DNA of 64,000 nucleotides. Source: a virus. Below are positions 12,045-53,500 of this stretch, in pieces. The stretch's first letter is position 1, and each line of letters opens with the position of its first letter. A program made the translations under genes and the position numbers. The DNA is taken from the IMG/VR virus record IMGVR_UViG_3300021420_000014; one strand, written 5' to 3'. Below the pieces are notes generated by a model. That model had not been told where the DNA came from and ran no database searches. It saw only the letters and a program-made list of their open reading frames with translations.

Positions 12045-12688
12045 CCTTTCCTGAAGAGCACGCAGCCATTTGCAAAATACTATGGGAGCGCGATAGCCCT
12101 TGTGTTGTCGAGCTTGGAGCCCATGATGGCAGTGACACCGAATGGATGCTTGCGGCTTCTAAACATCCTAATATCTTCGCCATCGAGGCAGATCTGATCA
12201 ATTTTCACTCCCTCATATCAAAAATGCTCCCGATCCTTGCTGTTTACGGAGCTATTGCAGGCCACAGTGGAATTTGTGATTTCTGGGGTTCGCGCTCAAG
12301 CGGCGGAGGCTATGGTTCTATTTATAGGCCGATGAATGGCCTGAGCGTACCAGCCGATGAATTCACTGGAATCGGCCCTGTTCCTTGCTATACGTTCGAC
12401 GATTTTTGCAACAATCACGCGATCGGCCAAATCGATCTTCTCTATGTCGATATACATGGAGCCGAGCGTGACATGATCGAGCATGGCCGCGCCGCTATCG
12501 GCCGAACGCGCTATCTCTTCATGGAAGTATTCAATTATTCTGCCTATCAAAACATGGCGACAAGAGATCAGTTGTTGGCCATGCTGCCTGGTTGGACGTT
12601 AATGCAAGAGTTCCCCTGGAACGTGCTTTTGAAGAATGGGGCATACAGTGAAACTGTACGCACGAATGCCTTCGCCTCGCGAGCGTAA
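12041..12688 (+). CDS. FkbM-family methyltransferase
   Basis: VELGAHDG; AIEAD; IDLLYVDIHGAE. Confidence 0.88.
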   Translation: MTFPEEHAAICKILWERDSPCVVELGAHDGSDTEWMLAASKHPNIFAIEADLINFHSLISKMLPILAVYGAIAGHSGICDFWGSRSSGGGYGSIYRPMNGLSVPADEFTGIGPVPCYTFDDFCNNHAIGQIDLLYVDIHGAERDMIEHGRAAIGRTRYLFMEVFNYSAYQNMATRDQLLAMLPGWTLMQEFPWNVLLKNGAYSETVRTNAFASRA

Positions 12689-13190
12689 ATTATACGATAT
12701 GGTGATCGGCCGCGGCGTAGAACAAGAAGTCGGAGCATTGCTATATGGGTTAGTCCGCGTGCTTAAACCGAATGTGTGCGTAGAAACAGGAACGCTAGTC
12801 GGCGATTCTGCCGAGTGGATTGGGCGAGCTCTGCGCGATAACGGCTTTGGCCATTTGACGACTTGCGATATCGATCCAGCTAGGATTGAGCCAGCCAGTA
12901 AACGTCTTCAGGGCTTACCTGTTTCGATCATTCAGAAGCCAGGAATAGAGACGTTGGGCAGTTTTGAAATGATGGATTTTGTTCACATTGATTCCGGAGA
13001 TTTAGAGTGCCGTATCAACGAAGTCATGAGCCTGGATGAACGCAATATCTCGCCCGGTGGAATTGTGTGCTGGCACGACGCTATCGTTGGATTTGACTCG
13101 ATGTACGAATCATTTGCGAACGCTAGAAATTGGCCGCATCTGCTGATACCTAGTGTGGTAGGCTTGGCTGTGTTTGCGCGGCCTGAATAA
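12648..13190 (+). CDS. class I SAM methyltransferase (Methyltransf_24-like)
   Basis: VETGTLVGDS; DFVHIDS; PGGIVCWHD. Confidence 0.85.
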   Translation: MKLYARMPSPRERKLYDMVIGRGVEQEVGALLYGLVRVLKPNVCVETGTLVGDSAEWIGRALRDNGFGHLTTCDIDPARIEPASKRLQGLPVSIIQKPGIETLGSFEMMDFVHIDSGDLECRINEVMSLDERNISPGGIVCWHDAIVGFDSMYESFANARNWPHLLIPSVVGLAVFARPE

Positions 13191-36840: not shown

Positions 36841-37611
36841 ACGAGATTAGCCTTCGGCTCGGGGCAATTGTTCGCATTGCCAGGACCATTTTTTGGTGGC
36901 GTCTTCAACGCCTCTCCTGTTTGGTTTGCCACACTGCAAGATGTCGATATCACCATCGACGCCACGATCAAAGAACTCCGCGGCCAGCTTCAATTTCCAG
37001 ATGATACGGCAATCTCGGACAAGAAAATAACCTGGAAAGCCGGCTACGGTCGCTTCTCGATCGATACCTGGAACAACATTTATTTCGGCGATACGATTAG
37101 TGCTGGATCCAACTCCGGTGGCATAGGAGCAGGCGGCGGCGTTCCGCAAGTTCAGGAATCGACCACGCTCGTTTCGACTACTTATACAGTTACCCACTCG
37201 GCCACATTCACACAAGACATGGGCGTCATTTACGGTTCGAACCTTCAACTCTTCCAGAAAGTTACCGGAGCTCCTGCACTGGGCCAATACAACGTTAGCG
37301 CGGGCTTATATACATTCAATGCTTCCGACAACAATAAAGCGATCCTGGTCAGCTATCGCTATCAGATCACCACTGGCCGCGTGCTCGTCGTTCAGAATCA
37401 CGTCCAAGGCTGGGGCCCGCAGTTCGAAATGCTTTTGTCGCAACCTTATCAGGAATTGACGACCGGCATTCCCAATTATCTCGACCTCTACGCTTGCAAG
37501 GCCGGCAAGCTCACCGCTCCGCTCAAGCGCGCCGATTACTTGATCTCCGACATCGAGGGACAAGCGTTCGCAAATTCGGCTGGTTTCCTCGGCGAATTTT
37601 ACGAAGATTGA
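36841..37611 (+). CDS. tail tube (major tail) protein; probable ACG start
   Basis: FGSG.L; LQDV.I....IKELRGQ.QFP; GQYNVS.G.YTF..SD. Confidence 0.8.
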   Translation, partial: TRLAFGSGQLFALPGPFFGGVFNASPVWFATLQDVDITIDATIKELRGQLQFPDDTAISDKKITWKAGYGRFSIDTWNNIYFGDTISAGSNSGGIGAGGGVPQVQESTTLVSTTYTVTHSATFTQDMGVIYGSNLQLFQKVTGAPALGQYNVSAGLYTFNASDNNKAILVSYRYQITTGRVLVVQNHVQGWGPQFEMLLSQPYQELTTGIPNYLDLYACKAGKLTAPLKRADYLISDIEGQAFANSAGFLGEFYED

Positions 37612-37625
37612 ACGTTATCAACAAG

Positions 37626-38120
37626 TTACGTGCGCCATCGTTTCCGATTCACGATCTTGGATATCGTATTAGGTTTCCTATTGAATCGCTTGGCTAGTTC
37701 AGTTTGCGGAACTCCGGATTCCCACAGCTTTCTAATTTCGCACACTTGCTCGAATTTTAAGCGCGTAGGATAGTGTTCGTCGCCTGCTGGAAAATGCTGC
37801 CTTCCCTTTTTAAGCATATCTTGCATGTTGTCCTGGCGCGTTCCAGTGAATAGGTGAGTAGGTCGAATACAATTAGGTTGGTCGCAATGATGAAACAGCT
37901 CATGGCCCTCTGGTATTGTATTGCCGTGCAGTTCCCATGATACGCGATGGACTACGCGTAATCCTTTGCTCGTTCCAATTTGTCCATAACCATCCTGATT
38001 TTTAGATCCGGTCCAAATCCAGCACGGCCCTAACTCCGGGCACGACGCAGGGATAGGCCCATTCTTGTCGACATGCTTCCAGAATCGTTCTTTGAGAGTA
38101 TTATCTGTAGGACAGGGCAT
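37626..38120 (-). mobile_element. HNH homing endonuclease with C-terminal HTH
   Basis: RFW..V.K...CWIWTG; HRVSW; HHCDQPNCIRPTHL..GT..DN. Confidence 0.92.
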
Positions 38121-38180
38121 CGCGCCTCCTGTCAGGTGCGGTGTTCTTCGGGGTCTGCGTGTCCAGCGCAGGCCCTTTTA
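38115..38180 (+). ncRNA. HNH-associated two-hairpin element, copy 1
   Basis: stems close with G-U pairs only on the + strand; conserved in three copies. Confidence 0.55.
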
Positions 38181-38247
38181 TTTTATCATTTGACAGTGTT
38201 GCTTTTCACGCATATGAAGGGACAGGATGTAGCTCTTCAGAGGGTAT

Positions 38248-38460
38248 CTGCCAGACATAACCTACGAATGCCTCGAATGCGGACATCAGATCACTGAATT
38301 TATTGCTTGTCAATCTTCCATGAAGAAGGGCATCTGCGGTCCTTGCGCAGTTAAGCTGATTCGGATTGCCTTTCCTCCGCGGTTTTCCAAAATTGAATGG
38401 TTCTTTGTTCGGATCAAGCGGCGTCTACTAAAAGAGAAACCAGTTGCAATCGCTGCTTGA
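38248..38460 (+). CDS. FmdB-like zinc-ribbon protein (70 aa); probable CTG start
   Basis: P..TYEC.ECGH...C.PC; SD GAGGG; in-frame TAG upstream. Confidence 0.6.
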   Translation: MPDITYECLECGHQITEFIACQSSMKKGICGPCAVKLIRIAFPPRFSKIEWFFVRIKRRLLKEKPVAIAA

Positions 38461-38710
38461 CGGATTGCCTTGACGGTTTTATCATCTGGTCCAGAATCAG
38501 ACTGCCTCGCAATCCTGCCGAGACTATTTGATTCTCCCTTGGGGCCTAGCCCTTGCTGGGCCCTTTAATCTGGAGACGCTCTCGTTGAAAATATTGAGCT
38601 ACTCCTAAAATCCGCAAAAGCTGTTCAGGAATACCGCGGCTAACCCAAGCGAGGACGCTCGCAAGCCGCTCAGCAGTTAAAATCCAAACTGAATCCAAGA
38701 GCAAGAGTAA

Positions 38711-39388
38711 ATGCGCGTACACGAAGTCTACATGGATGGGATCTCCGTTCGTATCGCGCCGCTGACCTTCGATGAAACCGAGCAGTACATCGAGGAAAAT
38801 CGCGCGTCGGCGAAACATACCCACCGAGAATGGACAGAGCGCAGTTTGGAGACGGTATGCCGAGCATTAAATAAGGCGGCTGGCCGAGAGGCATGGACGA
38901 TCGAGCGAATCAAGTCAGAGTTGGATCTTGCCTTCTTCCTTTATTTGCACGAACAGATTCTGAACAAGAGTGGGCTCATTACTGTCGCACCGGAAGAGGA
39001 CCATGATGTCGATTTTGCCTTCATTCGCTGCCGCATCGTTACCGAACTTGGCATGACGCCAAATGAAGTAGGAGCAATGGATTTCCCGTTCGTGCAAGAG
39101 TTGCTTGAGTACTGGCTCGATTATCCGCCAGCGCACGTGCTTTTGCGCGCACAAGTTGGATATGACCCGAAGAAGCAAAACTGGCGAGAGCATCGCGCTA
39201 ATGAAGTTGGCGATGAAAGCTATGCACCGGAGCGTAAATCTATAGCTTCACGGCATTCATCGTCTGCTGAAGAAGTCCGTATGGCCATGAATTCCTTTAC
39301 AGGAGCACGACATCTCGATTGTGCTCCAGGCCACATTCAAGAAGCAGTCGCCCGCGCTAAACGCGGCGATCATCTTAACGTTCCGTAA
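38711..39388 (+). CDS. tail assembly chaperone, G-T-like fusion
   Basis: between tube and TMP; C-half ..ELG.TP.EV..M....L.EYW...PP. Confidence 0.7.
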   Translation: MRVHEVYMDGISVRIAPLTFDETEQYIEENRASAKHTHREWTERSLETVCRALNKAAGREAWTIERIKSELDLAFFLYLHEQILNKSGLITVAPEEDHDVDFAFIRCRIVTELGMTPNEVGAMDFPFVQELLEYWLDYPPAHVLLRAQVGYDPKKQNWREHRANEVGDESYAPERKSIASRHSSSAEEVRMAMNSFTGARHLDCAPGHIQEAVARAKRGDHLNVP

Positions 39389-39401
39389 CCGAGGTGAAAC
39401 G

Positions 39402-39734
39402 ATGGTTCGTGTAGTTGATTTCAAGATCGATGAATTCGTTAGTGTAAGGCTTGCGGCAATGAGTTGGGCCGAGGCTGAGAAGTTTCAGGAAGAGACAGCG
39501 CAACTGCTCGCTAACAAAGAAGCAACAAAATCGGAAGATTGGATGGGTCTTACGCAACGCACCGTCATTGAATCGATCAAAAAGGCAACAACGATTAGGC
39601 CCATAGATGGTCAGCCAACAAATGGAGATTTCACCTTAGAGGTTTTGAAGAGGGATTTTGATTTGCCAGCCATCAATGCGATGTACTTTAAGGTGCTCGA
39701 AATCTCCGGTCTCAAGACAGAGGTTAAATCTTAA
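39402..39734 (+). CDS. tail assembly chaperone, stand-alone G-like paralog
   Basis: aligns with the N-half of 38711; SD GAGGTG. Confidence 0.7.
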   Translation: MVRVVDFKIDEFVSVRLAAMSWAEAEKFQEETAQLLANKEATKSEDWMGLTQRTVIESIKKATTIRPIDGQPTNGDFTLEVLKRDFDLPAINAMYFKVLEISGLKTEVKS

Positions 39735-42088
39735 TGGCAGACGATAACCTTCGAATTTCTGCATCTATGGATGTGGGCCCGATCGTCAGCGGTACCAATG
39801 CTGCTGGCGCGGCCGTACAAAGTCTGGCTGACAAGTTCAAACAAGTTGCTGCCGATGCCCAAAGGGCCGGAGATGCTGTCTTAGCTCAAGCGGCTCGCTT
39901 TCAAGCTCAAGGATTGACGGCAGAACAAGCTGCTCAAGCCCTAATGCATTTTGGCAGCAGCGCAACGGAAGCAGCTACAGCAGCAGCGGCGGCAGCAAGT
40001 GCCGCAGGCGTGGAAGCCGCAGCTCTCACAACGGTCGCCGAGGCCGCAACCGGGGCTGGCGTGAGCATGCAAGCGAGTGCCATGGCCGGTGCTAAGGTTA
40101 GAGAAGAATTAGGCGCACTCACCGGAAGCATCGGTGGCATTGAATACGGCTTGGCGCGCGTCGCTTCCCGCATACCAAGTTTGATTCCGATCATCAGCGA
40201 TGTTTTCCCTCTCTTCCTAGCTATCGGTTTCGTGGAAATGCTCGGCGCGATGATTAGCAAGATAGGCGAAGTTGTGTCTGCGTATGAAGGGTGGGACGCG
40301 GTAACTCAAAGACTTTATGCCGATGCCCTCAAGGCAAACGCAGAGGAGATGAAGTACACCACCGATCTAAAGATCCAGCAGATGGAATTGAACGAGATTG
40401 GCCTCAAAGGATCCGAGCTCGAAGCAGTATCGGCAAAAGATGCTCACGCTGCAGCACTATTGAAGACCGCAGATGCCGCGGCAGAACTTGCCGTACAACG
40501 AGATCTTTTGGCCCAGCGTGACAAGACCGCAGCGCAATCCATGCGGGAACAAGGAGTACCAGAAACTGCGATTCGCCCATGGATGGAACAGCAAGCTCTC
40601 GTCAGAGAAGGCAGCAAAGAATGGGACGATCTTACCAAGCGTGCGGCTGAAGCCGGAGAAAAAGCAAGAGACTATGCAAAGGAAGGACAGAACCTAGAGC
40701 TCGTCAAGCTTCCAACCGACAAGCTAAAGGAAACGGCGGATCTAGCCAAAGAGGTGGCAGAGCAAGAGAAAAAATTGCGAGAGATCTGGGATCAGACGGG
40801 CAAGGACGCTGTGAAGGCCTACGATTTGCAGATCGCCGCCACCAAAAATAGGACTAAGGCGGAAGAAGAGATGGGCTTGGCTGTTTCCTCATCAAGCGAT
40901 AGAGAGGTGCGAGCTGCATCAGAAGCCGCAGTAGAAAAAGTCAAGTTTGAAAACGATTATCTGGCCGCTCTTCGGAGCGGTGAAGAACAAGCCGCACTGA
41001 TATCGATAGGAGCTCAGGAGATTGCCGCAAAGCAGCATGCTGAGATGCAGAAGGAAAAGCTTCGCGTATCTCTAGAATCGGCTCCTCACAAATCTAAAGA
41101 CCTAGGAAAGCTACAAACCGATGAGCTAGAAACGCAGAAGCGGCTAGAACAGGAAAAGGCCGACGCTGTTGTCAAAAGCCTAGAGGCACAGCGCGACGCC
41201 ATGGGTTCGCATGCTGCGGAGCTGGGGTCTATTAGCGGTATAGGCGTGGGGACAGCACCGCGGGCAGTGCCGGAAAATGCCGCCGACGCAGCACTGCTAG
41301 CGAAATGGCAAGAGTTACAAAACAAAATCGTCGATGCCAAGAAACAAGCTGCTGCAAAGATGCAAGAGATCGACGGCCAGATCAAGCTCTCCAATCAGCA
41401 AACGGCTAATCAGATCCAGCAATACTGGGCGTCCACCATGATGCGGTTCATGCAGCCGTTCGAGACTGCCTTCGACGGTGTGATCAAAGGAACTGAGTCC
41501 GTAAAGTTCGCCTTCATTAAGTTGGGCGGCGAACTAGTCATGAACATGGTTCATTCCCTAGAACAAATGCTTATGAAATGGATTACCACGCATGTTGCCA
41601 TGACGATTGTGCATGCTCTGATGGGCCAGCAGCAGGTGATTCAGGATACTACTACAGCTGCGGAAAAGCAGGCAATTCAGGCGGCATCGGCCACTGCGAC
41701 CATTACGCAATATGCTGGCGTGGCTGCCGCCGAAGCTTATGCCGCCGAAGCTGCGGTTCCTGTAGTGGGTCCGGGCTTGGCGGCAGGCGCGGCGGCCACA
41801 GCCTTCTCTGAAGTTATGGCCTTCAACGCATTCGCTGCCGCGCAGAAAGGCGCGATCGTGCCACGGAACATGCCCCTCAATGTGCACGAAGGGGAAATGG
41901 TGCTCCCTGCTGGGATTTCTAGACCATTACAGCAAGCGTTAAGTCCTGGCGGCGGTGGGATAGGCGCTAATCCGACGAATGTTCATATCCACGCAATGGA
42001 CAGTGAAAGTATGCGTAGTTTTCTATATCGCAACCAACGCACTTTTGTCTCTTTAGCGCGCGGAGCCATCCGAAACGGGAGATTCTAG
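39734..42088 (+). CDS. tape measure protein
   Basis: 784 aa, Ala-rich and helical; C-terminal VHEGEMVLPA. Confidence 0.9.
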   Translation: MADDNLRISASMDVGPIVSGTNAAGAAVQSLADKFKQVAADAQRAGDAVLAQAARFQAQGLTAEQAAQALMHFGSSATEAATAAAAAASAAGVEAAALTTVAEAATGAGVSMQASAMAGAKVREELGALTGSIGGIEYGLARVASRIPSLIPIISDVFPLFLAIGFVEMLGAMISKIGEVVSAYEGWDAVTQRLYADALKANAEEMKYTTDLKIQQMELNEIGLKGSELEAVSAKDAHAAALLKTADAAAELAVQRDLLAQRDKTAAQSMREQGVPETAIRPWMEQQALVREGSKEWDDLTKRAAEAGEKARDYAKEGQNLELVKLPTDKLKETADLAKEVAEQEKKLREIWDQTGKDAVKAYDLQIAATKNRTKAEEEMGLAVSSSSDREVRAASEAAVEKVKFENDYLAALRSGEEQAALISIGAQEIAAKQHAEMQKEKLRVSLESAPHKSKDLGKLQTDELETQKRLEQEKADAVVKSLEAQRDAMGSHAAELGSISGIGVGTAPRAVPENAADAALLAKWQELQNKIVDAKKQAAAKMQEIDGQIKLSNQQTANQIQQYWASTMMRFMQPFETAFDGVIKGTESVKFAFIKLGGELVMNMVHSLEQMLMKWITTHVAMTIVHALMGQQQVIQDTTTAAEKQAIQAASATATITQYAGVAAAEAYAAEAAVPVVGPGLAAGAAATAFSEVMAFNAFAAAQKGAIVPRNMPLNVHEGEMVLPAGISRPLQQALSPGGGGIGANPTNVHIHAMDSESMRSFLYRNQRTFVSLARGAIRNGRF

Positions 42089-42983
42089 AGGACATGTTTC
42101 CAACTTCGCCTGTGAACTATACCCCAAATTGTTGCAATATGGACCTTAAAGCTTCGCGCGATATCTGCCAGTCTTTCCGTTCGTGCTCTCCATCTTATCT
42201 CTCTAACTTGATCCTCATTAAGTATAGAATTTTTGTTTTGCGAGCCTGGGAAGGATTTATTTCTTCCTTTTGCCATCATGTCATCAGCATTCTCTTTATG
42301 GTTGCCAAGGAAAAGATGCGAAAGACGTACACATGGCGGATTGTCACACTTGTGCAGAACGCTAATGTCTCCGGATCTTCTCCTGTTTGTATAAGCCACG
42401 CCACTCTATTAACTCTACTGATTCTGCCGTCGATGCTCATATGCCCATAGCCTTGGCGCTGACGGTATCCAGTCCAAATCCAGCATGGCCCCAATTCAGG
42501 GCAATCTTCTGGCATAGGTCCCTTTTTGTTAACCTTAGCCCAAAAGCGTTCTTCCAACGTCGGAGGTGGTTTGCGTTCTTGCGTCCGGATACGTCTAATC
42601 CAATAATCTATCCCACTTGGATGGTAAGATCTATTTCTGGCGATCATTTCAGCGATATTCTCCGCTTGAGTACCCACCCTCAGATGATCTGGATTGGGAC
42701 AGCCCATGTTGTCGCAATGATGGAGCACACAATAACCGTCAGGTACCGGCCCATTGTGCAATTCCCAAGAGACCTTGTGCGCATGCTGAGTCCCCTTGCT
42801 CGTACCAATTTGGCCGCGGCCATCCTCTTTTTTATAACCAAGCCAAATCCAGCATGGGCCAAGTTCTGGGCAATGCTTTGGAACCTGGCCGTTCTTATCT
42901 ATCTTTTGCCAGAATCTTTCGGCAAGAGTGGAATCAAGGCACTGGTTCTTGACGTGTTTGGCAGTAGAATCGAGAGAAAGCAT
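42085..42983 (-). pseudogene. tandem double-HNH endonuclease with a 1-nt frameshift near 42372
   Basis: two CPELGPCWIW units; the second HNH continues in another frame. Confidence 0.8.
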
Positions 42984-43042
42984 CGCGCCTCCTTAGTAGG
43001 CGTGGTGTTCAGCGCGGGGGCGTTTACGCGTCCTCGCGCTTT
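42979..43042 (+). ncRNA. HNH-associated two-hairpin element, copy 2
   Basis: same architecture as copy 1. Confidence 0.55.
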
Positions 43043-43053
43043 CGCATTCTAAC

Positions 43054-43251
43054 ATGGCTGTCGAACGTCAGATTCTGACGGTTGTTTCAAAAGACGGCAA
43101 CGTTTTGCAATTAGAAACCGAAGCTGGTGAGAAATGGTCGCTCGATTTAGATACGGCGGTTGAATTCGAAGTTGGCGATCAGTTTACGTGGGATGGCACA
43201 ACATTACACATCCTACAGGCAAAAAGAGTCAAAGAGGATTTTGTTAACTGA
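43054..43251 (+). CDS. small hypothetical protein
   Basis: 65-aa acidic beta-rich ORF. Confidence 0.55.
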   Translation: MAVERQILTVVSKDGNVLQLETEAGEKWSLDLDTAVEFEVGDQFTWDGTTLHILQAKRVKEDFVN

Positions 43252-43289
43252 CATGATCCGTGGCGCGATAAGGAATGGGAGGTTCTGAC

Positions 43290-43658
43290 GTGAAGAGAAT
43301 CGCACTTTGCCTGCTGTGTGTGCTCGCGTTCTTCATTGGACGAGGTTATTCACAGACCGTTTACACTACCGTGACAATCGCCAATGGTACTGCAGCTCTT
43401 GGAACCGGTGCCATTAACTCCGGAACGTGCGCCAGTGTGGTCACCATCTCAGCACCGGGCACACTGAGTACCGACAACATCATTGCTGATTTCAATACCG
43501 ATCCGACCGGAGTTACCGGCTATAGCCCCACATCAGGAGGTATTCTAACGATCATCAAGTATCCAGGTCTGAATACTGTCTCGTTCAAGGTATGTAACAG
43601 CACCACTTTGCCAATTACACCGGGGCCCATAACCTTGAACTGGAGGGTGCCACGTTGA
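43290..43658 (+). CDS. signal-peptide-bearing small beta-sandwich protein
   Basis: MKRIALCLLCVLAFFIGRGYS|Q. Confidence 0.7.
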   Translation: MKRIALCLLCVLAFFIGRGYSQTVYTTVTIANGTAALGTGAINSGTCASVVTISAPGTLSTDNIIADFNTDPTGVTGYSPTSGGILTIIKYPGLNTVSFKVCNSTTLPITPGPITLNWRVPR

Positions 43659-45886
43659 AGCTCTTCGTTATAGCTGCGGCCATCTTGCTTTTAGCCATTC
43701 CGGCGCACGCGCAACTCTGGTCTGGAGTCATCTCCGCAGGCCGCGCTATAGATTGGTCATCTGCTGGCGTCGTCGGTGGAATTCCAGACGCAGCTTGGAC
43801 TCAATGCGGTTCAACCATCGCGGCCTACGGGACGGTGGGCACTCCTGGTGCTCCAACTACGATCAACAGCGCCATCGCAGCTTGTGGCGTAAACCAATAC
43901 GTGCTGCTAGGGATTGGCACCTTCGTTCTAAATGCCAAGATAGATTTTGCTTCAAAGTCGAATGTTGTCCTGCGCGGTGCCGGAGCAGACCAGACAATTA
44001 TTAAGTTTACAGCAGGACCGGGGACCGGATGTTTTGGGCTCGGCGGTGCTGTTTGTATTACAGGCCAAGATAATTTTGACATTCGGGATAACGTTCAAAA
44101 CTCTGCGAACTGGACGGCTGGATACGCCCAAGGTGCAACATCGATCACTTTGAGCAATACCACAAACTTGCAAATCGGTGCTCTTTTAGTGCTTTGGCAA
44201 GCAGATCAGGCAACCGATCCGGGCACGATTTGGAATTGTCAGAATACTGGAGCGTTAGGAGATTGTTCGGAGCAAGGAGGCCAAAACGGTCCTTCTGGCA
44301 ACAGTCAAACGCAAACTGTCACTGTAACTTCTATCCCCGGAGGAGGCGCAGGAGGCGCAGTTGGCATTTCTCCTGGTCTGTATTCGCCGATCTGGTCGGG
44401 AACTTTCTCGCCTGCGGCAGGCTGGAATACCCATCTGCCAGTTCAGAACGATGGCGTTGAAAACCTTACGCTTGATGGTTCTCTCACGACTGATAGCCCA
44501 GGTAGTGCGGGGTCATTCATCTTTTTTGGTTGGGCTAAAAACTGCTGGGTAACAGGCGTTCGCACGATCAACAATGGCTCACCGCCGGACAGAAATAATA
44601 TCTGGAGCTATTTGTCGTCGCATTTGACGATCCAGAATAACTATTCTTACGGGTCGAACGGTTCTAATCTGAGTTATGGGCACGAAGTATCTTTCATGTC
44701 TGACGACATTCTGGACGCAAACAATATATTTCAACACGTTGCCGGTGCTGAAATAATGAATGGCGGAGCGGGAAACGTCTTTGCGTACAACTTCTCGGTG
44801 GACAATTACTACACTGCGGGCGGCACGGCCCCCAATTTCGAGCAATCAGATTCCTACCCTTCTCACCAAGACGGTTCCTATTTCAATCTGTTTGAAGGCA
44901 ATGTTGGAGCAAAAATTGCTTCCGACGATATTCACGGCACGAGTTGGATGGTAACTGCATTTCGGAACCGCTGGACCGGGAGGGACGGTCCATTCAAGGT
45001 CGCGAGCACGATGGTCGCGGACATTGAAGCCTATTCACGCTATTACAACCTGATTGGTAATGTGATGGGTGAGTCCGGCTACCATACGACGTACAAAGAC
45101 ATCCCCTCTTCGAATGTCGATAATACTGGCTGCACGACTACAGGGAATGTCTCGATCTATGCACTAGGATGGGCGGGCGGACAGGCTTGCAACTACAGCA
45201 TTGTTTACAACGACACCAATGTCGCTCCTTTCTCTTATTTTTGGGGCAATTACGATGTCGTTACCGCAGCAGTCAGGTGGTGCGGGAATTCTGGCGATCC
45301 AGGCTGGTCGACGACGTGTAGCAGCACTTCGGAAGTCCCGACTGGTTTGGGCTCTTATGCTCAGACCGTTCCGTCCAGTACTGCGCTTCCTACATCGTTT
45401 TATTATTCGTCCAAGCCCTCGTGGTACAACGACGGAATCGGACACTCCGCACTTCACTATCCTGCGATTGGCCCCGATCTTTCTGGTGGCCCTGATCCGG
45501 GCGGCTTCGGCTATGCGATCCCCGCGCAGTTGTGTTTCAACAATACAAGCTACGATACAAATTATTCCGTTTCGGATTCCATAACCTCAATCAGTGAGGC
45601 GGGAACCACGGCGACCGCTACGCTTAGTTCAAGTGCGCCGGCGAGCTTCACGCAATATCAATCGTTTTGGATCACGGGCTCTTCGGTCGCTGGCTACAAC
45701 CGTCTCTGGCAGATAGCGACGGTAGCAGGAACCACGCTGACGTTCACTGCGACTTCCGGCCTAGGGTCGGCCACAGGAGGAAGCGCCGCGGTAAATGCAG
45801 TTCATTCTTTCAACGCCAACACCTGCTATAGCGGTGCTCTACCTGCACCTCCTACGCAAGTATCGGCAATCACGATTGGACCTTAA
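43655..45886 (+). CDS. signal-peptide-bearing pectate-lyase-like beta-helix protein
   Basis: ...AHA|Q; INSAIAAC...L..GTF; VVLRGAG.DQT; GVENLTLDG. Confidence 0.8.
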   Translation: MKLFVIAAAILLLAIPAHAQLWSGVISAGRAIDWSSAGVVGGIPDAAWTQCGSTIAAYGTVGTPGAPTTINSAIAACGVNQYVLLGIGTFVLNAKIDFASKSNVVLRGAGADQTIIKFTAGPGTGCFGLGGAVCITGQDNFDIRDNVQNSANWTAGYAQGATSITLSNTTNLQIGALLVLWQADQATDPGTIWNCQNTGALGDCSEQGGQNGPSGNSQTQTVTVTSIPGGGAGGAVGISPGLYSPIWSGTFSPAAGWNTHLPVQNDGVENLTLDGSLTTDSPGSAGSFIFFGWAKNCWVTGVRTINNGSPPDRNNIWSYLSSHLTIQNNYSYGSNGSNLSYGHEVSFMSDDILDANNIFQHVAGAEIMNGGAGNVFAYNFSVDNYYTAGGTAPNFEQSDSYPSHQDGSYFNLFEGNVGAKIASDDIHGTSWMVTAFRNRWTGRDGPFKVASTMVADIEAYSRYYNLIGNVMGESGYHTTYKDIPSSNVDNTGCTTTGNVSIYALGWAGGQACNYSIVYNDTNVAPFSYFWGNYDVVTAAVRWCGNSGDPGWSTTCSSTSEVPTGLGSYAQTVPSSTALPTSFYYSSKPSWYNDGIGHSALHYPAIGPDLSGGPDPGGFGYAIPAQLCFNNTSYDTNYSVSDSITSISEAGTTATATLSSSAPASFTQYQSFWITGSSVAGYNRLWQIATVAGTTLTFTATSGLGSATGGSAAVNAVHSFNANTCYSGALPAPPTQVSAITIGP

Positions 45887-45907
45887 TGCACGCTGATGGA
45901 CTAACTA

Positions 45908-46906
45908 ATGTTCAATCTCAGAGATTCATCGGGCTACCTATGGTCAGTAAACGTTCTCGACAACGGCGATTTGACACAAACCAAGGGCTCTCTAGGCTCT
46001 ACGCCAAACGTCTACTTGAACGATCCAACAAATTCCGCATCGTTTCAGATCGGCATCACAATAGTCGGAGGGTTGACCCAGACTTCGGTAACTTTCAATG
46101 CTTTGTATCCAGAATCAATTACTCTGATTTCTCCATCCGGCCTGACGTATGGTTTGTTCATTACGCTGGCTGGCGATTTATTTACAGTTGCTTTCGTGGG
46201 GTTTCCTGTGGCCTTTCCCGTTTATCCGACAATTCGCGGTAAAGCTTGGCCGGTGACTCGTACACAGATGTGGGAGAACCAGGTTCAACGGATGAGCTCT
46301 GGAGCTGAAGTGAGAATTGCTTACTGGGCAAATCCGCTGAAGAGCTGGGAGATTCGCTACGGCGGCGGGGCTAACGACGCTGGCTATATTAAAGATAATC
46401 CAGGCGACATCATGATTGGCGCGACTGAAACGGATATGCGTGTGATCGAAGGTTTCTATAATCAGATGCAAGGCCGCTTTGGTGTTTTCCTTTTTGATGA
46501 TGTGACTCCAGGTTATGCGCAAGGCCAAGGTCCATGGGATTCGGTCGGGATCGTTGGCATGGGTGGCAATCCACCTGTTCAGCAATCGATAGGTACTGGC
46601 GATGGTTCGACGACGACATTTCAGTTGGTCCGTACGATAGGCGGATTCACCGAGGCGATTCAAACTCCATTCACGACGCCGGCACCCAATATTTATTTGA
46701 ATGCTGTCCTGCAGGTTTCTGGCTACTCAATCAATCAAATCGGCCAGTTAATTTTTACCAGCCCTCCTGGCAGTGGTGTGGCGATAACTGGAACTTATGG
46801 CTATTACTGGCCGTGCCGATTTTCAGATGATTCGATTCCATTTGACAATAATTTGCTTTATCTCTGGGCAGCTAAGTCAATCAAAATCGAACAATGCCGT
46901 CTCTAA
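45908..46906 (+). CDS. DUF2460-family distal tail protein with three N-terminal beta-hairpin modules
   Basis: SSG.E.R...W; GTGDGSTTTFQL.R; YWPCRF.DD. Confidence 0.85.
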   Translation: MFNLRDSSGYLWSVNVLDNGDLTQTKGSLGSTPNVYLNDPTNSASFQIGITIVGGLTQTSVTFNALYPESITLISPSGLTYGLFITLAGDLFTVAFVGFPVAFPVYPTIRGKAWPVTRTQMWENQVQRMSSGAEVRIAYWANPLKSWEIRYGGGANDAGYIKDNPGDIMIGATETDMRVIEGFYNQMQGRFGVFLFDDVTPGYAQGQGPWDSVGIVGMGGNPPVQQSIGTGDGSTTTFQLVRTIGGFTEAIQTPFTTPAPNIYLNAVLQVSGYSINQIGQLIFTSPPGSGVAITGTYGYYWPCRFSDDSIPFDNNLLYLWAAKSIKIEQCRL

Positions 46907-46975
46907 AATATGTTTCCACGTCTTCGGGGTGTTCACGCGTTCTGGCCGCTTCCAATTTTACGTCGGGGGTGGCCA

Positions 46976-47869
46976 ATTAAACCAGCGTCCTCGGCTTTCA
47001 AGAACTTGCTTTTTCAAGACTACAGTTACTGGGTCGGCAATCTGTTCACGATTACGCTCTTCGATGGCACGATCTTCACGTGGACAGACTTCGAATATGA
47101 TGTCGTACTCTCCGGCACGCGCTTTTCTTCCCGCGGCCCCTACCCGTTATGGTCTGGCTTCACACAAAAGATCGGCGTAGAAGTAGATGAAGGTAAGCTC
47201 CAGCTTTGGGCACTTCTTACTAACCTCGTTGAGAGCCAGGCCGTCCTCCAAGCGATCGGCACCGGCTTGTTTGATAACGCGGACATCGTGATTCAACGCG
47301 TGATGATGGGAAGCACTGGAGCTCAACCGGCACGGCCGATCAACTTCGATACTTCAGCGGGCGCAGTTACGCTCTTCCATGGCAATGTGTCAGACATCAC
47401 AGAGGTTGATCGAAGTCACGCTGAAATAGACATCAAAAGCAAGAAGGAATTGCTCAATCGACCGTTCCCGGCTCACGTCTATCAGCCGGCGTGCCGTTGG
47501 GATCTTTATGGAGCAGGTTGTACGCTGAACATTAACAATTTCTACATCAATGGCAGCATAGTCGGAAGTGGCTCTCTTAATCTGCTTTTCAATACAACGA
47601 TGACTAATATCGACCACTACTTTGATGAAGGCTTAATCACTTTTACCAGCGGAGCGAATGTTGGTGTTACCAGGACCGTGCGCCTATATCTGAATGCCAG
47701 CGGCCAGACTCTTCTTTTTGTGCCGCTACCTGCGGCTCCCGCTAATGGAGACCAGTTCAAAATGGCACCTGGGTGCGATAAGCAATTGGCTACCTGCCGC
47801 GATAAATTTAACAACTTAATTAACCTGGGTTCGATGCCCTTCGTACCGGTCGCAGAAAGTGCTATCTAG
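46976..47869 (+). CDS. DUF2163-family baseplate hub protein (start ATT 46976 or ATG 46910)
   Basis: LFTITL.DG; CRWDLY..GC; PGCDK....C..KFNN..N..G.PFVP. Confidence 0.85.
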   Translation: MKPASSAFKNLLFQDYSYWVGNLFTITLFDGTIFTWTDFEYDVVLSGTRFSSRGPYPLWSGFTQKIGVEVDEGKLQLWALLTNLVESQAVLQAIGTGLFDNADIVIQRVMMGSTGAQPARPINFDTSAGAVTLFHGNVSDITEVDRSHAEIDIKSKKELLNRPFPAHVYQPACRWDLYGAGCTLNINNFYINGSIVGSGSLNLLFNTTMTNIDHYFDEGLITFTSGANVGVTRTVRLYLNASGQTLLFVPLPAAPANGDQFKMAPGCDKQLATCRDKFNNLINLGSMPFVPVAESAI

Positions 47870-48857
47870 GTTATACTTATGGTATGCATACAAAGGACGC
47901 TGGTTCATATACGCACTCTCCATCAACAAACGTGTCATTTACATTGGTCGGACGAAACATCCGTCTCTGCGACTGGCACAGCATCGCAAGCGCTTCGGCA
48001 TCAAGGTCCAAATGCGTATTTTGGAACAAGGAATGCGCGGAGGAGCAAAGGAAGCCGAACTGAAATGGTTGAAACGCTACCTCAAAAAGACTCGACTCAA
48101 GAACCTTATGATAACTGCTGGCGGCGCGTTTGTGTCGTCACCGGCAACGTTACGCAAATTACGGCGTGCTACGAGGCAGCTGTGGAAAGACATGCAATAT
48201 CGGGCAAAACAAAACGCAGCCCTTCTTGCTGCCGTTCGAGCACCGGAATATCGGAAGCGGCGCAGCAAAATGTCGAAGGCGATGTGGCGAAACCCTCGTT
48301 ATGCAGCAAAGATGCGACCATATATCGTTGCCGCAGGCAAACGACCGCGCAGCAAGAAGTACCGCCAGTACATGAGCGAAACGCTCAAAGCTCGCGGCAA
48401 GCCAAAGTGGAGCAAGGCTGGCGAGAAGCGCGTGCGGGCTACGCAGTTCCAGAAAGGCCGCAAGAATACACCAGAAGAATCACGCAAGCAGTCAGCAGCA
48501 TTGCGGCGTCGTTGGAAGAAGGTTCCGAAAGCCAAGCGATCCCAAATGCTCACGGAGTTAAACCTAAAAGTTTGGCGGAAGCGCAGCAAGAGCAAGCGAT
48601 GTCAGATCGGCCGCAATATCAGCAAAGCACTTCGCGCTTTGCCGGAACGAACGAAAAAGCGCATAGGACGTGTTGGATACAAAGCGGCCCTGAAAAAAGA
48701 TCCAAACTTCCACAAAAAAGCACGTGCAGGAGTCAAAGCCTTTTGGGCATCAATGACCCCGAGCGCTCGCAGTGCGCTCATGCTGAAACGAATGGCGAAA
48801 GCTGTGAGGAAGCGGCATGAGCGAAAAACTAAAAGAGAAGTTCCAAAGCCTACCTGA
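47859..48857 (+). mobile_element. GIY-YIG endonuclease with a basic repeat DNA-binding tail
   Basis: FIYAL....VIYIGRT....RL.QH; E..W; K/R-rich repeats. Confidence 0.75.
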
Positions 48858-49350
48858 TTTTTATCATCCACCATTTATTCCTGGCGAAGAATCCACTAAA
48901 CGTGCTGCTGTCATTGCCGAAGCCAGGACTTGGCTTTCGACACCGTTCCATCCAAACGCGTGCGTGAAGGGCCATGGCGTAGACTGTGGCCGCTTTCTGA
49001 TAGCCGTATATTCATCTGTCGGTCTTATGCCAGAATACGAACCTGGATATTGGAGCCCGCAATTCCATCTTCACTCTGGCGAGCCTAGCTATATGGCCGA
49101 AATGCTGAAGTTTGCGCATGAGATTCAAGTGCCGCCGGAACCAGCCGACATCGTGATGATTCATCTCGGACGTCAATACGCTCATAGTGGCATCGTCATA
49201 GAGTGGCCGAATCAAGTGATTCATGCGCCAGCCGCAGATATGCAAGGGGTAGTGCAAATTAGCGATGCCAGCAAAGACGCCTTATTTCTGCATGGCGGTA
49301 TGAGATTCCCTCCAAAATTCTTCTCGCCATTCAACCGGGAGACGCAATGA
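48817..49350 (+). CDS. NlpC/P60 tail-associated peptidase
   Basis: EARTWL.TPFH...GVDC; HSGI; IHA. Confidence 0.9.
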   Translation: MSEKLKEKFQSLPDFYHPPFIPGEESTKRAAVIAEARTWLSTPFHPNACVKGHGVDCGRFLIAVYSSVGLMPEYEPGYWSPQFHLHSGEPSYMAEMLKFAHEIQVPPEPADIVMIHLGRQYAHSGIVIEWPNQVIHAPAADMQGVVQISDASKDALFLHGGMRFPPKFFSPFNRETQ

Positions 49351-49979
49351 AAAAACTAGCACCAATTATTATAGTGTGCGTCGGATTGCTTGCTGGTTTA
49401 TTCGTCGGAATACCTAGGTTAAGAGTAGCGGCACAGAACACATTTGCGGCGCTTAATCTGGCGCAGAATTTTACTGCATTGCAACAATTCAGTGCTGGCA
49501 TCAGCGCAGACGGCACACATGTGGAGACAATTCCAGCCGTTACTGGCGGAACTCTAGCCGTGCTTCCTACATCATCTTTGGTTCCTGGTCTAACAGCTCC
49601 AAACATCGTAGCGGATGTTAACCTCACCGCTCAAACAGGCAATATCGGTACGCTCCTTTATGCTGTGCCAGTTGGCGGAACGGGGCAATATTACGTAACC
49701 TGTTACGTGGTACTCACACAAGCTGCAACTAGCTCATCCACTATGCCTGCCTGTAGTCTATCGTGGAATGAAGGGGATACTAATGTCTCTGCAAACCTAA
49801 CGTTTTTTTCAGGGGGTAGTGCCTCTAATACCGTAGGTGCTAACGAGACAGCATTTCCGAATGTCATCAGTGCGCGTGCAAGCACAAACATATTTTACAG
49901 CACGACAGGATATGGAAGTGTTGGTGCGACTCCGATGCAATATGCGATCCACCTTCGGCTTATCTATCTCGGTACGTGA
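49347..49979 (+). CDS. signal-peptide-bearing fibre-like protein
   Basis: hydrophobic N-terminus ...VAA|Q; NFTA.Q.F repeat. Confidence 0.7.
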   Translation: MKKLAPIIIVCVGLLAGLFVGIPRLRVAAQNTFAALNLAQNFTALQQFSAGISADGTHVETIPAVTGGTLAVLPTSSLVPGLTAPNIVADVNLTAQTGNIGTLLYAVPVGGTGQYYVTCYVVLTQAATSSSTMPACSLSWNEGDTNVSANLTFFSGGSASNTVGANETAFPNVISARASTNIFYSTTGYGSVGATPMQYAIHLRLIYLGT

Positions 49980-49992
49980 CCGCCACTGCGGT

Positions 49993-50490
49993 TTAAATAT
50001 GCTTCCAGCGTTTGCGAGTAACGATCAGTTGGACGCACTGCTGAATCACGCCAAATTTGTCGGCGATGGCCTGTTGTGTCATGCCATTGGCGGCGAGAGC
50101 GCGGATCTCCAACACTTCCTTTTCGCTAAGCTTGCTATTGGGCTGGTCTTCACCACGAAGCATATTCGCTCGGCCTTTAGCAAACTTATCCCGCATGTTA
50201 TCGAGTTGAGTGCCTTCAAAAAGATGGGATGGTCGTACGCATTTGCGATTATCGCATTTATGCAGGATGCGCTTCCCTTCTGGTATTGGCCCAACGAACA
50301 ACCTCCAAGAGACGCGGTGGGCCATCTCGCGTTCTGTGCTGCTGATCCAGATGCAGCCATAACCGAAACCTCGAAGCTCGCCGGTCCATTCCCAACACGG
50401 TCCGAGCTCAGGGCAATGTGGTTGGGTTGGGCCGTTTTTATTGACGTGGGACCAAAAGATTTCTTCCGTGGTACGCTTGCGCCTAGGCAT
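49993..50490 (-). mobile_element. HNH homing endonuclease with C-terminal HTH
   Basis: CPELGPCWEWTG; AHRVSW; HKCDNRKCVRPSHL. Confidence 0.92.
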
Positions 50491-50551
50491 CGATTCCTCC
50501 CAATTAGGATCGGTGTTAGAACCGCAGGAGATTCACAGTCTCTTGCGGTTC
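50486..50551 (+). ncRNA. HNH-associated two-hairpin element, copy 3
   Basis: same architecture, diverged sequence. Confidence 0.55.
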
Positions 50552-50576
50552 GTCATTTTAACACTTGCGGTGCCAT

Positions 50577-53500
50577 GTGACTAGTATACTCCGTGGCTCT
50601 GGTTATATTTATCCGAACAATCGTCTCGGTGGGATCCGCATCCAGACGTCCCTCTTTGGAATGCCAATACCTATCGTCGGCGGCCGTAATCGCATTGCGC
50701 CCAATATCCTCTGGTATGGCGATTTCGTTGCGCAGCATGTGGCTGGCGGTAAAAAGGGAGCATCGAGCGGCGGCTCGAGCGGCAAGAAGGGACAAGCTGA
50801 ATACGATTATGGAGCCGCTGTCATTCTCGGCCTTTGCCAAGGCCCAATCCAACGTGTTGGAAATATCTGGGCCAATTCCGGCTATCTGCCAGTAAATCTT
50901 ACGCAAGAAACTTTCACTGTTCCAAGCGGTGGCGGCCAGTACGTGGTTACTCAAGTCAACACGTTTTTGCAGGACATGGGTGTGCAACGCGCGGACTTCT
51001 TTAGCGTGCCGTCGAACGATTTTGCATCGCCCTATGGTGCGATCACGCTTACTGGCACGCAGCAGACTCCAATGTCGTATGGGGCAGGAACTGGCCACTA
51101 TTCCCAAAGTGGCGGCACATACACTTTCTACGGTGGCGACGCAGGAAAGATCGTTACGATCAGCTATACCTATGCGCCGCCGATCACGACCGGTGGCGTA
51201 GCGCAGGATCCGATCACGACGATTGGCTTCTCATTTTTCAATGGCGCGCAAGGTCAAGCTCCTTGGGGCTATATGAGCTCGCGTCATCCAACGCAAGCTC
51301 TTGGCTACACGACGATTGCTTATGCAGCAACGCCACGGCTAGATCTTGGAGTTTCAGGAACGCTGCCGAATTTCAATTTTGAAATCTATGGCCTCGATCA
51401 TTTCGGCCGCGGCGTTTGGGATTGCGATCCTTCTGTGTGGATTCAGGACATGCTTACGAATGCAATCTGGGGTGTGGGATTTTCTGTTAACGATATTGGT
51501 TCGATGAATCAGATGTCCAATTATTGCGTTGATCCGAAGACACGGATCTTGACCGCTGATCTTAGGTGGATTCCCGCTAGCGAGATAAAAGTTGGCTGCA
51601 GTGTTCTAGCGTTCGATGAAGAATCAACAGTAAAACGCAGCGGACGCGGCACGTGGAAGGGACGCCAATGGAAAGTCTCGGAGATCCAGGAAAAACGGAT
51701 CATTAAAAGGCCGTGCTACAAAATCCATCTAAGCGATGGCACCACGCTTATATCGTCTGCGGAGCATCTATGGTTGGCATCAAGAGGGGAGGAGCATCAC
51801 TATCACTGGATCCGAACCGATCAGTTAATGACTAATCGCTTTTCCTGGGGCCGTAAATGGTGCCTCTTCAAAGCAATAGCTACTTGGAGCGAGCGTCAGG
51901 AATATCAAGCAGGCTATTTGGCTGCTGCTTTTGACGGAGAAGGCTCATTCAGCCAAGGTCGAAGATACTGGGCTCATGAAGAAGGCCTGAAAAAGGGCTG
52001 CGGTACAACCTCGTTGTCATTCGCTCAAAAACCTAATGCAATGCTCCATGCAACTAAGGAATATCTGCATGACTTTGGCTTCATGTTCAGCGAAAGGCCG
52101 CGGAAGGATCACGATCTTGTAGATATACAAATCCTAGGTGGCATCACTGACTATTTACGATTCGTAGGAACTGTTCGTCCGCATCGACTTCTAGAAAACT
52201 TTGATCCGGCGAAGCTTGGCAAGTTTGCACGCAAGGAAGCGATAGCTGTAATAGGTTTGGAGTACATTGGCGAACAGGAAGTAGTAGCGCTACAGACATC
52301 AGAACATACGTTTATTGCCGAGGGCTTCGCAAGCCACAACTGCGTGGCCAACGGGCTCTTTATTTCTCCAGTATGCGATGAGCAGCGGACCGCCGGCGAC
52401 TATATCAAGGACTGGCTCGAGGCCACCAATACTGAAATCGTGGAATCCGGCGGAGTGCTGACTTTCATCCCACGCGGAGATACGACCACCGTTGGTAACG
52501 GGGTGACTTTCACACCGCAAACCGCGCCAATCTATGGTCTCGACGATAGTGCGTTCATCCGAGATGGCCAGGCACCGCCCGTCAAAGTACGCCGCCCTTC
52601 AATTCAGGATGCCTACAACTCGATCAAGATCGAATATGTGGATGTCTTCAATAATTACAATCCATCGGTTGTTGAAGCTCAGGATCTCGGAGCAATTCAA
52701 CGATATCGCTATCGTCCTGAAGGCCAGCGCAACTGGCATTTTTTTACGCAACAGACACCAGCCGCATTAGCAGCTCAAACGCTTCTCGTCCGTAAGGTCT
52801 ATATCCGCAATACCTACGAATTCAAATTGAGCATGCGGTATCTACTGCTCGATCCAATGGATATCGTAACGATTCCGGCGCACCTGATTTACGGGACCGG
52901 CTTAAACCAACTGGTATGGTCACAAAACTTCGAAAACGTTTGGACGATCCATCAAATTGTGACGCCAAGCCCAGGAATAGTTGCTCCGGATGGAACCTTG
53001 ACCGCAGAAGCTTTTGTTGCGACGGCTGGAGCCACTGATTCTTATGCTTTGCAGGTGGTGGGGAATATTACAGCAGGAGCACCTTATATATTCTCCGTTT
53101 GGCTGAAGGTTCCTAGCGGCACCAAATCCACTAACATCTATCTCTATGCGGTAACAGGGGCGACTCTCGTACCGGTCACCGTAACATCTGCTTGGAAGCG
53201 TTTCCTCATTACGGGAATTTCTAGTGGCACCAGTCTGACAGTGCAAATAGGCGGCGGCGGTACGTTTACTTCTGGCGAAATCGATGCGTGGGGGACTCAA
53301 CTGGAACCAGATTCTGGCTCCCACATTCCTAGCATATATTCACCGACCCAGGGTAAACCAGCCTATACGCCAGATGTAGCGGTTCGCCTCATCTCTGTCA
53401 CTGAAAATTCAGATAACACATTATCGTTCGAGGCCGAAGATTTTCCGTGGGGCTGCTCTGGACCAACGCTTTATCCGAAACAGATTCCTAATCCTGGCGG

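Follow-up and report, generated by a model that had tools for sequence, protein, structure and literature searches.

Short antisense RNAs that lie over the ribosome site of a gene and end in a terminator hairpin are known from several phages (sar/ant of P22, OOP/cII of lambda, c4 of P1/P7), where their targets are genes for lysogeny or immunity in a single phage and they belong to no portable cassette. RNA-OUT of IS10 is an antisense RNA of 69 nucleotides (nt) that blocks the ribosome and shows multicopy inhibition (PMC5006887). Homing endonuclease genes of T-even phages and of Aeh1 (I-TevI, I-TevII, I-TevIII, segB and mobE) have mRNA hairpins that sequester the ribosome-binding site and are bypassed by a late promoter, TATAAATA, lying inside the hairpin, while 'fractured gene' endonucleases feature hairpins in their 5' untranslated region (PMC2988022, PMC2677866). 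In cyanophage S-PM2, CfrI, an antisense RNA of ~225 nt that runs opposite a homing endonuclease gene, was detected by experiment (Millard et al. 2010; PMC2984593, PMC12197685). The present analysis concerns the IMG/VR virus record IMGVR_UViG_3300021420_000014, of which a stretch of 64,000 nt (the window) carries three HNH genes on its minus strand. Each of them is headed by a portable control cassette of ~110 bases that most likely makes an antisense RNA of ~70 bases over the ribosome site. By its description CfrI is set apart from this RNA: it has three times the length, joins the endonuclease gene to psbA and is of unknown function, and no conserved two-hairpin cassette over a start codon is described for it.

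Two hairpins on the strand opposite three HNH genes

A preliminary description of this DNA had noticed two consecutive hairpins over the starts of the three HNH genes, and folding bears this out at 38114-38176, 42979-43040 and 50486-50551 (z -5.6 to -7.2). At all three sites hairpin 1 contains the complement of the HNH ATG and of its GGAGG Shine-Dalgarno (SD) sequence, and hairpin 2 is GC-rich. In copy 1, hairpin 1 (38114-38147, + strand) has four G-U pairs and a stability of -21.5 kcal/mol on the antisense strand against -10.4 kcal/mol on the sense strand; its 5' arm contains the ATG complement (38118-38120) together with the anti-SD CCTCC. Hairpin 2 of this copy (38150-38176, + strand) is directly followed by a T tract (38177-38185). 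Copy 2 has hairpin 1 at 42979-43009 (+ strand; -16.8 versus -8.1 kcal/mol, three G-U pairs) and hairpin 2 at 43011-43040 (+ strand; -23.5 versus -15.0 kcal/mol), with a weak T-rich tail. In copy 3, hairpin 1 occupies 50486-50517 (+ strand; -11.6 versus -6.4 kcal/mol) and hairpin 2, with 15 pairs, 50519-50551 (+ strand; -22.4 versus -16.5 kcal/mol).

The two-hairpin folds of the + strand reach -42.0, -41.5 and -36.2 kcal/mol (z -6.6, -5.6 and -7.2), and none of 200 shuffles is as good. The HNH mRNA (-) strand is weaker at every site, with -22.7, -24.7 and -24.3 kcal/mol (z -2.1, -1.6 and -3.5), a strand difference of 12-19 kcal/mol. When the entire 165-kb genome is scanned in segments of 70 nt (mean -15.7, standard deviation 4.8), sites 1 and 2 rank first and second in stability. 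Among the 113 gene starts of the genome the top three antisense-bias values are -17.9, -17.7 and -11.8, which correspond to the three HNH sites as judged by their size; control gene starts have a mean strand bias of +0.9 (standard deviation 5.4).

Pairing is kept though the sequence differs, as had been proposed. Read from the folds, hairpin 1 shows two double-sided changes between copies (C-G to A-U; G-U/G-C to U-A) plus G-U/G-C swaps. The hairpin 2 sequences of the three copies are unrelated yet form 11-15 pairs each time. The G-U pairs noticed earlier on the + strand, which are A.C on the HNH mRNA, are real: there are 3-4 in each hairpin 1 and 2-3 in each hairpin 2, and the sense folds have none. 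The element is genuine and conserved, with selection acting on it in the strand opposite to HNH.

A comparison with Rfam 15 at a permissive E-value found no matching family. The best hit at the element is the R1162 antisense RNA, on the wrong strand and with 23.6 bits against a gathering threshold of 55 (E = 2.3), and RNAs of the P22 sar, OOP and c4 types have no Rfam match in the window. A search by eye for the YUNR loop motif in hairpin 1 gave no consistent occurrence.

Strand bias, covariation and spread among relatives

Relatives of the HNH protein were gathered from IMG/VR, bacterial metagenome-assembled genomes and metagenomes, and include a hold-out set. Many loci with only 30-45% protein identity have the same two-hairpin layout in quite different sequences. 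With starts assigned by the SD sequence alone, the antisense two-hairpin geometry is found in 24 of 48 earlier loci and in 18 of the 35 hold-out loci. This agrees with the earlier proposal that the element travels with the CPELGPCW-type HNH family, about half of the diverged relatives having it. SD-based assignment replaced start picking by Watson-Crick-only folding, which was noisy in high-GC loci and blurred the histogram of distances to the -10 element.

Selection of the fold on the antisense strand, also proposed before, is corroborated by a family-wide strand asymmetry and by covariation of both hairpins. Among 38 curated loci, hairpin 1 is more stable as antisense RNA in 33 and as sense RNA in 3, a figure that is inflated because these loci were picked using antisense folds; its G-U pairs number 76 on the antisense strand versus 12 on the sense strand. 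The corresponding counts for hairpin 2 are 32 versus 6 loci and 54 versus 11 G-U pairs. When the segments are picked by Watson-Crick-only folding, which is nearly strand-symmetric, the difference in folding free energy between strands (ddG) is -2.5, versus +0.7 in matched random segments (P = 2e-4), and a related Watson-Crick-only two-hairpin screen gives a ddG of -2.3 in both the earlier and the hold-out set (P about 0.007; 0.008 in the hold-out set).

Covariation was scored on MAFFT alignments that were not fitted to the structure. In hairpin 2, 83% of the cells are paired versus 66% after shuffling, double-sided changes occur at 11 of 12 pairs, and the covariation score is 0.50 versus 0.21 in shuffled alignments and 0.07-0.14 in slid registers. 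In hairpin 1 the paired cells amount to 84% versus 72% shuffled and the score is 0.38 versus 0.19. MAFFT combined with RNAalifold on the whole module recovered hairpin 2 only in part, and MAFFT gave no structure-consistent seed alignment spanning both hairpins.

This bias bears on the possibility that the hairpins are an ordinary mRNA leader, in which hairpin 2' (hairpin 2 as read on the mRNA) would be a 5'-terminal stabiliser and hairpin 1' would hide the SD and AUG, as in T-even I-TevI, mobE and segB. Sequestering hairpins are a known control of phage homing endonuclease genes (PMC2988022, PMC2677866). As in the T-even and Aeh1 cases, a hairpin of the HNH cassette covers the start codon and SD of a free-standing endonuclease gene of a phage, accompanies this gene when it moves and presumably limits the nuclease. 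Hairpin 1' does overlap both signals, and the Watson-Crick core folds on the sense strand too, with the two-hairpin geometry in 16 of 48 and 14 of 35 loci. Stem positions that are not Watson-Crick are nevertheless mostly antisense G-U, that is A.C in the mRNA (76:12 and 54:11). Two of these wobbles are conserved: 16 of 20 sequences pair the T of CAT with G, which puts a C opposite the A of AUG on the mRNA, and 15 of 20 retain another G-U. In place of a stable mRNA-strand hairpin, hairpin 1' averages only -5.7 kcal/mol, against -10.1 kcal/mol for its antisense counterpart. No bypass promoter lies within the hairpin, direct reading of hairpin 1 at the three sites having revealed no late promoter TATAAATA, and a leader would leave unexplained the antisense -10 and the T-rich tail described below. 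A leader of this kind is improbable. The HNH cassette differs from the T-even and Aeh1 hairpins in that its fold is selected on the opposite strand, its sigma-70-like promoters lie outside the hairpins and it has an extra, terminator-like hairpin.

An element acting at the DNA level is more improbable still. It could be an operator for the helix-turn-helix (HTH) domain that the HNH proteins carry at their carboxyl terminus, in autorepression as is known for I-TevI (PMC2988022), or a single-stranded DNA hairpin through which the cassette is replicated or recombined. Many relatives conserve a palindrome, CCCCGG...CCGGGG, as the outer stem of hairpin 2, and G.T is the most stable mismatch in DNA as well. 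A duplex operator, however, predicts neither the strand bias nor the covariation of the inner stem. The three hairpin 2 sequences of the window are mutually unrelated, copy 2 keeps the element despite loss of its HTH, and the promoter and terminator features fit an RNA.

In most distant relatives (L014, L023, L029, L040, L064, L085, L160, L181, L190 and others; columns 67-96 of alignment A5) hairpin 2 has a fixed architecture: an outer stem CCCCGG/CCGGGG, one bulged base in the 3' arm, a covarying inner stem of 5 bp and a U.G that closes the loop. A generic terminator would be less specific. The hairpin 2 copies of the window deviate from this plan. A stem finder that allowed no bulge mis-called the bulged stem and was discarded for hairpin 2. 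In L190 (metagenome contig Ga0326597_10000769) a 3.6-kb segment holds three HNH starts (263, 1429 and 2693), each with a full cassette of TGn -10, hairpin 1, bulged hairpin 2 and T-rich tail, so that the elements are densely clustered there.

Predicted facing promoters and a predicted antisense RNA

Three features are new in this analysis: the antisense -10, T-rich sequence after hairpin 2 on the antisense side only, and a facing extended -10 on the HNH strand. Among 39 curated loci an antisense TAnnnT motif, often TGn-extended, lies inside HNH codons 3-6 with its last base 7 nt (in 12 loci) or 4 nt (in 9 loci) ahead of CAT, the complement of the start codon. This position is 6-8 nt before the hairpin 1 base, and the background is ~0.008 hits per position. 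In the hold-out set with SD-only starts, TAnnnT stands exactly 7 nt before CAT in 10 of 35 loci, seven of which also have the TGn. The amino-terminal peptides encoded over the antisense -10 vary by locus (HSK, KYT, QCT, QFS, DIT, KRT, DNT and others) while the DNA motif is constant, which points to selection on the DNA and not on the protein.

In the window, the predicted antisense -10 of copy 1 is TATTAT (38099-38104, + strand), inside HNH codons 6-7 and ending 13 nt before the ATG complement. That of copy 2 is TAGAAT (42965-42970, + strand) and that of copy 3 a predicted extended TGG TACGCT (50469-50477, + strand; TG at 50469-50470, hexamer at 50472-50477), both 10 nt before the ATG complement. 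Measured to the hairpin 1 base, the distances are 8-9 nt by the hairpin boundaries given above and 6-8 nt by longer stem boundaries (copy 1: 9 or 6). These -10 elements are 10-13 nt from CAT and yet 6-8 nt from the hairpin base because hairpin 1 reaches further 5' in the window copies. A conserved + strand -35 for the antisense promoter was looked for and not found. At the amino terminus of the copy 2 protein (42920-42983, - strand) the peptide LDST occurs two times (MLSLDST...QCLDSTL). It is the additional, first repeat that provides the antisense TAGAAT with the appropriate spacing to hairpin 1, which looks as though a short duplication had rebuilt the putative promoter.

On the other side of the cassette, an extended -10 of the HNH strand lies just upstream of hairpin 2' in all three window copies: TGnTAAAAT at 38180-38188 (- strand; predicted start ~3 nt inside hairpin 2') for copy 1, TGnTAGAAT at 43046-43054 (- strand), overlapping the ATG of the next + strand gene (43054), for copy 2, and TGnTAAAAT at 50555-50563 (- strand) for copy 3. 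Among the relatives an HNH-strand TAnnnT is found 0-19 nt upstream of hairpin 2' in ~26 of 38 loci, and 9 of the 23 hexamers no more than 16 nt away are TGn-extended. These are predicted promoters, and an antisense motif enriched at a fixed distance with an extended -10 facing it is an IS10-type arrangement.

Hairpin 2 has the polarity of an antisense terminator. The 10 nt past it contain on average 4.3 T on the antisense side versus 1.3 on the sense side (P = 3e-6), with at least five T in 20 of 38 loci versus 1 of 38. Hairpin 2 of copy 1 and its T tract have the shape of a canonical intrinsic terminator on the + strand; in a terminator consensus scan copies 1 and 3 pass, the tail of copy 3 (GTCATTTT) being weaker, and copy 2 fails. 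Folds, covariation and T-rich tail together are those expected of a structured antisense RNA that is complementary to SD and AUG and ended by a terminator, with the tail weak at copies 2 and 3.

These features suggest that convergent promoters probably make the HNH mRNA and a cis-antisense RNA of ~70 nt that holds the nuclease down. The cassette would consist of two facing sigma-70-type promoters, often with an extended -10, ~60-65 bp apart. The gene-strand promoter would yield an HNH mRNA that begins at the outer edge of hairpin 2', while the opposite-strand promoter in HNH codons 3-6 would start an RNA of ~70 nt at the base of hairpin 1. This RNA would be made of hairpins 1 and 2, the latter ending the transcript with its U-rich tail, and is predicted at roughly 38112-38183, 42978-43047 and 50485-50558. 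It would overlap the mRNA by ~62 nt comprising leader, SD and AUG. Since it is complementary throughout to the leader, SD and start codon of HNH, it should keep ribosomes from binding and/or give rise to a substrate for RNase III, to which the converging polymerases would add transcriptional interference. With its G-U pairs the antisense RNA would remain stably folded; the mRNA has A.C mismatches at these positions, and its ribosome site should therefore be usable when the antisense RNA is absent. The net effect would be to keep a potentially harmful nuclease low. The earlier suggestion of an antisense repressor or processing element gains support from the antisense -10 at its fixed distance and from hairpin 2 with its terminator polarity. 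What we infer is the firing of both promoters, the end of transcription after hairpin 2 and the repression of HNH by pairing.

The structure had been placed on the late transcript, and here gene orientation points elsewhere. Here and in many relatives the HNH gene runs antiparallel to the genes beside it. The polarity of the cassette is unchanged behind co-oriented upstream genes in L160 (large terminase), L169 (DNA methylase) and L014 (exoribonuclease-like), and downstream genes are co-oriented with HNH in L029, L056 and L088. Neighbours were called with low confidence by a position-frequency gene caller trained on HNH genes, the key orientations being confirmed with PHROGs and Pfam. As the cassette keeps its antisense polarity at the co-oriented loci, read-through of the main strand cannot be the general source of an antisense RNA, and a discrete RNA of ~70 nt from its own promoter is more likely than a part of the late transcript.

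The same loci bear on the view that the cassette carries an insulator, with hairpin 2 terminating transcription that enters from the antisense side, in this phage the late strand, and the antisense -10 directing outward transcription so that the gene past the insertion is expressed again; in that case the hairpins would stabilise a 5' leader or a 3' end and have no part in HNH regulation. Invading endonuclease genes were proposed to import control signals that their neighbours need (Dassa et al. 2009; PMC2677866). All three window copies, like many relatives, are antiparallel between tail genes. At site 1 a canonical terminator is followed by a + strand promoter, an arrangement conserved in the related phage G001, and at sites 2 and 3 the proximity of the next gene to hairpin 2 gives no space for another promoter. 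Still, this view is unlikely. Antisense polarity is kept in L160, L169 and L014, where no main-strand transcript runs that way and an outward promoter would enter the 3' end of a gene. A promoter with a terminator 70 nt further on is a poor driver of a neighbour, and the location of hairpin 1 exactly on SD and ATG, beginning at the predicted transcription start, would be left unexplained.

Several observations weigh against an antisense RNA made by the cassette itself. The full geometry is present in only about half of the loci of the CPELGPCW-type HNH_3 family, and in the cultured phages Mx9, DumpsterDude and CB1, which have related HNH_3 proteins, HNH is translationally coupled to its neighbour and has no cassette, so that none of these three offers a cultured test system. 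Tests free of curation (Watson-Crick-only, SD-only) show a smaller effect than the curated loci. The window antisense -10 elements lie 10-13 nt and not 7 nt from CAT, TACGCT is a poor hexamer and the -35 elements are weak. The T-rich tails of window copies 2 and 3 make poor terminators. Since the + strand is the late-gene strand here, read-through transcripts would carry the same hairpins, and a G.T wobble would stabilise a single-stranded DNA hairpin too.

The predicted antisense RNA is closest in layout to the RNA-OUT/RNA-IN pair of IS10/Tn10. In both a selfish element controls, or here would control, its own nuclease-type gene by facing promoters, the antisense one being within the 5' end of the gene, and by a stably folded antisense RNA of ~70 nt (predicted here) that is complementary to the region where translation starts. 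The expected effect is that ribosomes cannot bind, and action in trans between copies could occur. The two systems have no sequence or Rfam relationship. The HNH cassette has two hairpins and an overlap that spans the whole leader of ~62 nt, compared with 35 nt in IS10, and its putative target is a homing endonuclease in a genome of lytic type and not a transposase. Copies 1 and 2 share 14 identical nt over the SD-AUG complement, so that cross-repression is conceivable. The cassette might even be a portable sensor of copy number or competition, its RNA acting in trans so that copies or co-infecting phages silence each other as in the multicopy inhibition of IS10, or a safeguard, similar to a type I antitoxin, against a toxic nuclease. 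Such roles are doubtful, and either would imply a widespread, unnamed RNA family.

Genome setting of the HNH genes and meaning of the cassette

The window is the reverse complement of positions 64760-128759 in a virus record of 164,879 bp with terminal repeats. Nearly all its long open reading frames (ORFs) are on the + strand, and its 36-54 kb segment is a tail module coding the tape measure protein and tail proteins. This module is broken by the three minus-strand HNH_3 ORFs, which sit 13-14 nt past the stop codon of the preceding + strand gene and whose proteins are 45-48% identical in pairwise comparison. Copy 1 (37626-38120) codes a homing endonuclease of 164 amino acids with HNH_3 and HTH domains (Pfam HNH_3 4.8e-11, HTH_38 6e-7). 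Copy 2 (42276-42983) is an ORF of 235 amino acids, and copy 3 (49993-50490) codes an HNH_3 and HTH protein of 165 amino acids (Pfam HNH_3 8e-16). HNH_3 (PF13392) scores 42.5, 51.2 and 57.8 bits at the three sites, all above the gathering cut-off of 24.8. A carboxyl-terminal HTH domain is seen in copies 1 and 3, of which copy 1 alone passes the cut-off (HTH_38, 29.5 versus 27).

Site 2 (42085-42983, - strand) contains two tandem HNH genes. The first has lost its HTH and is fused in frame to the amino terminus of the second. The latter is frameshifted, with CPELGPCW at ~42474-42491 and its carboxyl-terminal half in another frame (42085-42399), and has no cassette of its own. The two-hairpin element is absent from the HNH genes of the same genome that are not of the CPELGPCW type. 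One of these other-subtype genes (G000:C1:132334-132765), on the main strand ~3.5-4 kb before the window start, has an internal TGA and adjoins a tRNA-like sequence; two more diverged HNH-like matches are found at C1:161676-161891 and 51384-51506. Searches of cultured phages with the tail-gene region (megablast with 16 kb; tblastn with a 743-amino-acid protein) gave no match.

Phage G001 is related to the present one, with 38% identity in the tape measure protein and 89% in the protein encoded upstream of site 1. It has HNH (68% identical) and the cassette at the equivalent of site 1, while at the equivalents of sites 2 and 3 HNH is absent and the genes overlap directly; the flanks there are too diverged for insertion boundaries at base level. 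The 89% identity of the structural protein versus 68% for HNH (36868-37611 and 37626-38120 against 12107-12841 and 11607-12098 of L267) suggests that the endonuclease either evolves much faster than its neighbour or was exchanged.

Directly past the site 1 terminator lies a + strand sigma-70-like promoter, TTGACA-17 nt-TATGAA (38191-38219). G001 has TTGACA, 17 nt and TATCAT in the same place (L267 ~11495-11530, - strand). This conserved promoter after the terminator makes site 1 look like an operon boundary, which divides the gene of a conserved 247-amino-acid protein from the chaperone and tape measure genes. The + strand genes after sites 2 and 3 (43054; 50565-50577) begin 12-26 nt past hairpin 2 and have no recognisable SD sequence, and their first codons overlap the -10/-35 region of the opposite-strand HNH promoter.

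Antisense self-restraint is known for transposons but to our knowledge is not described for this HNH nuclease family, and we know of only a few T-even examples, with mRNA hairpins and late promoters, of how free-standing homing endonucleases spare the phage that carries them. If the cassette works as proposed, a conserved, self-contained antisense-RNA cassette would be a second, transposon-like solution to homing endonuclease restraint, and would explain how HNH genes can sit antiparallel inside essential tail operons. As it is short and sigma-70-like, it is directly testable in a reporter system. The cassette occurs in dozens of diverged uncultured phages, is absent from Rfam and would stand for a new family of structured RNAs whose clear start and end points can be tested. 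Should the RNA also act as a sensor in trans or as a safeguard, this family would govern the spread of homing endonucleases in environmental phages.

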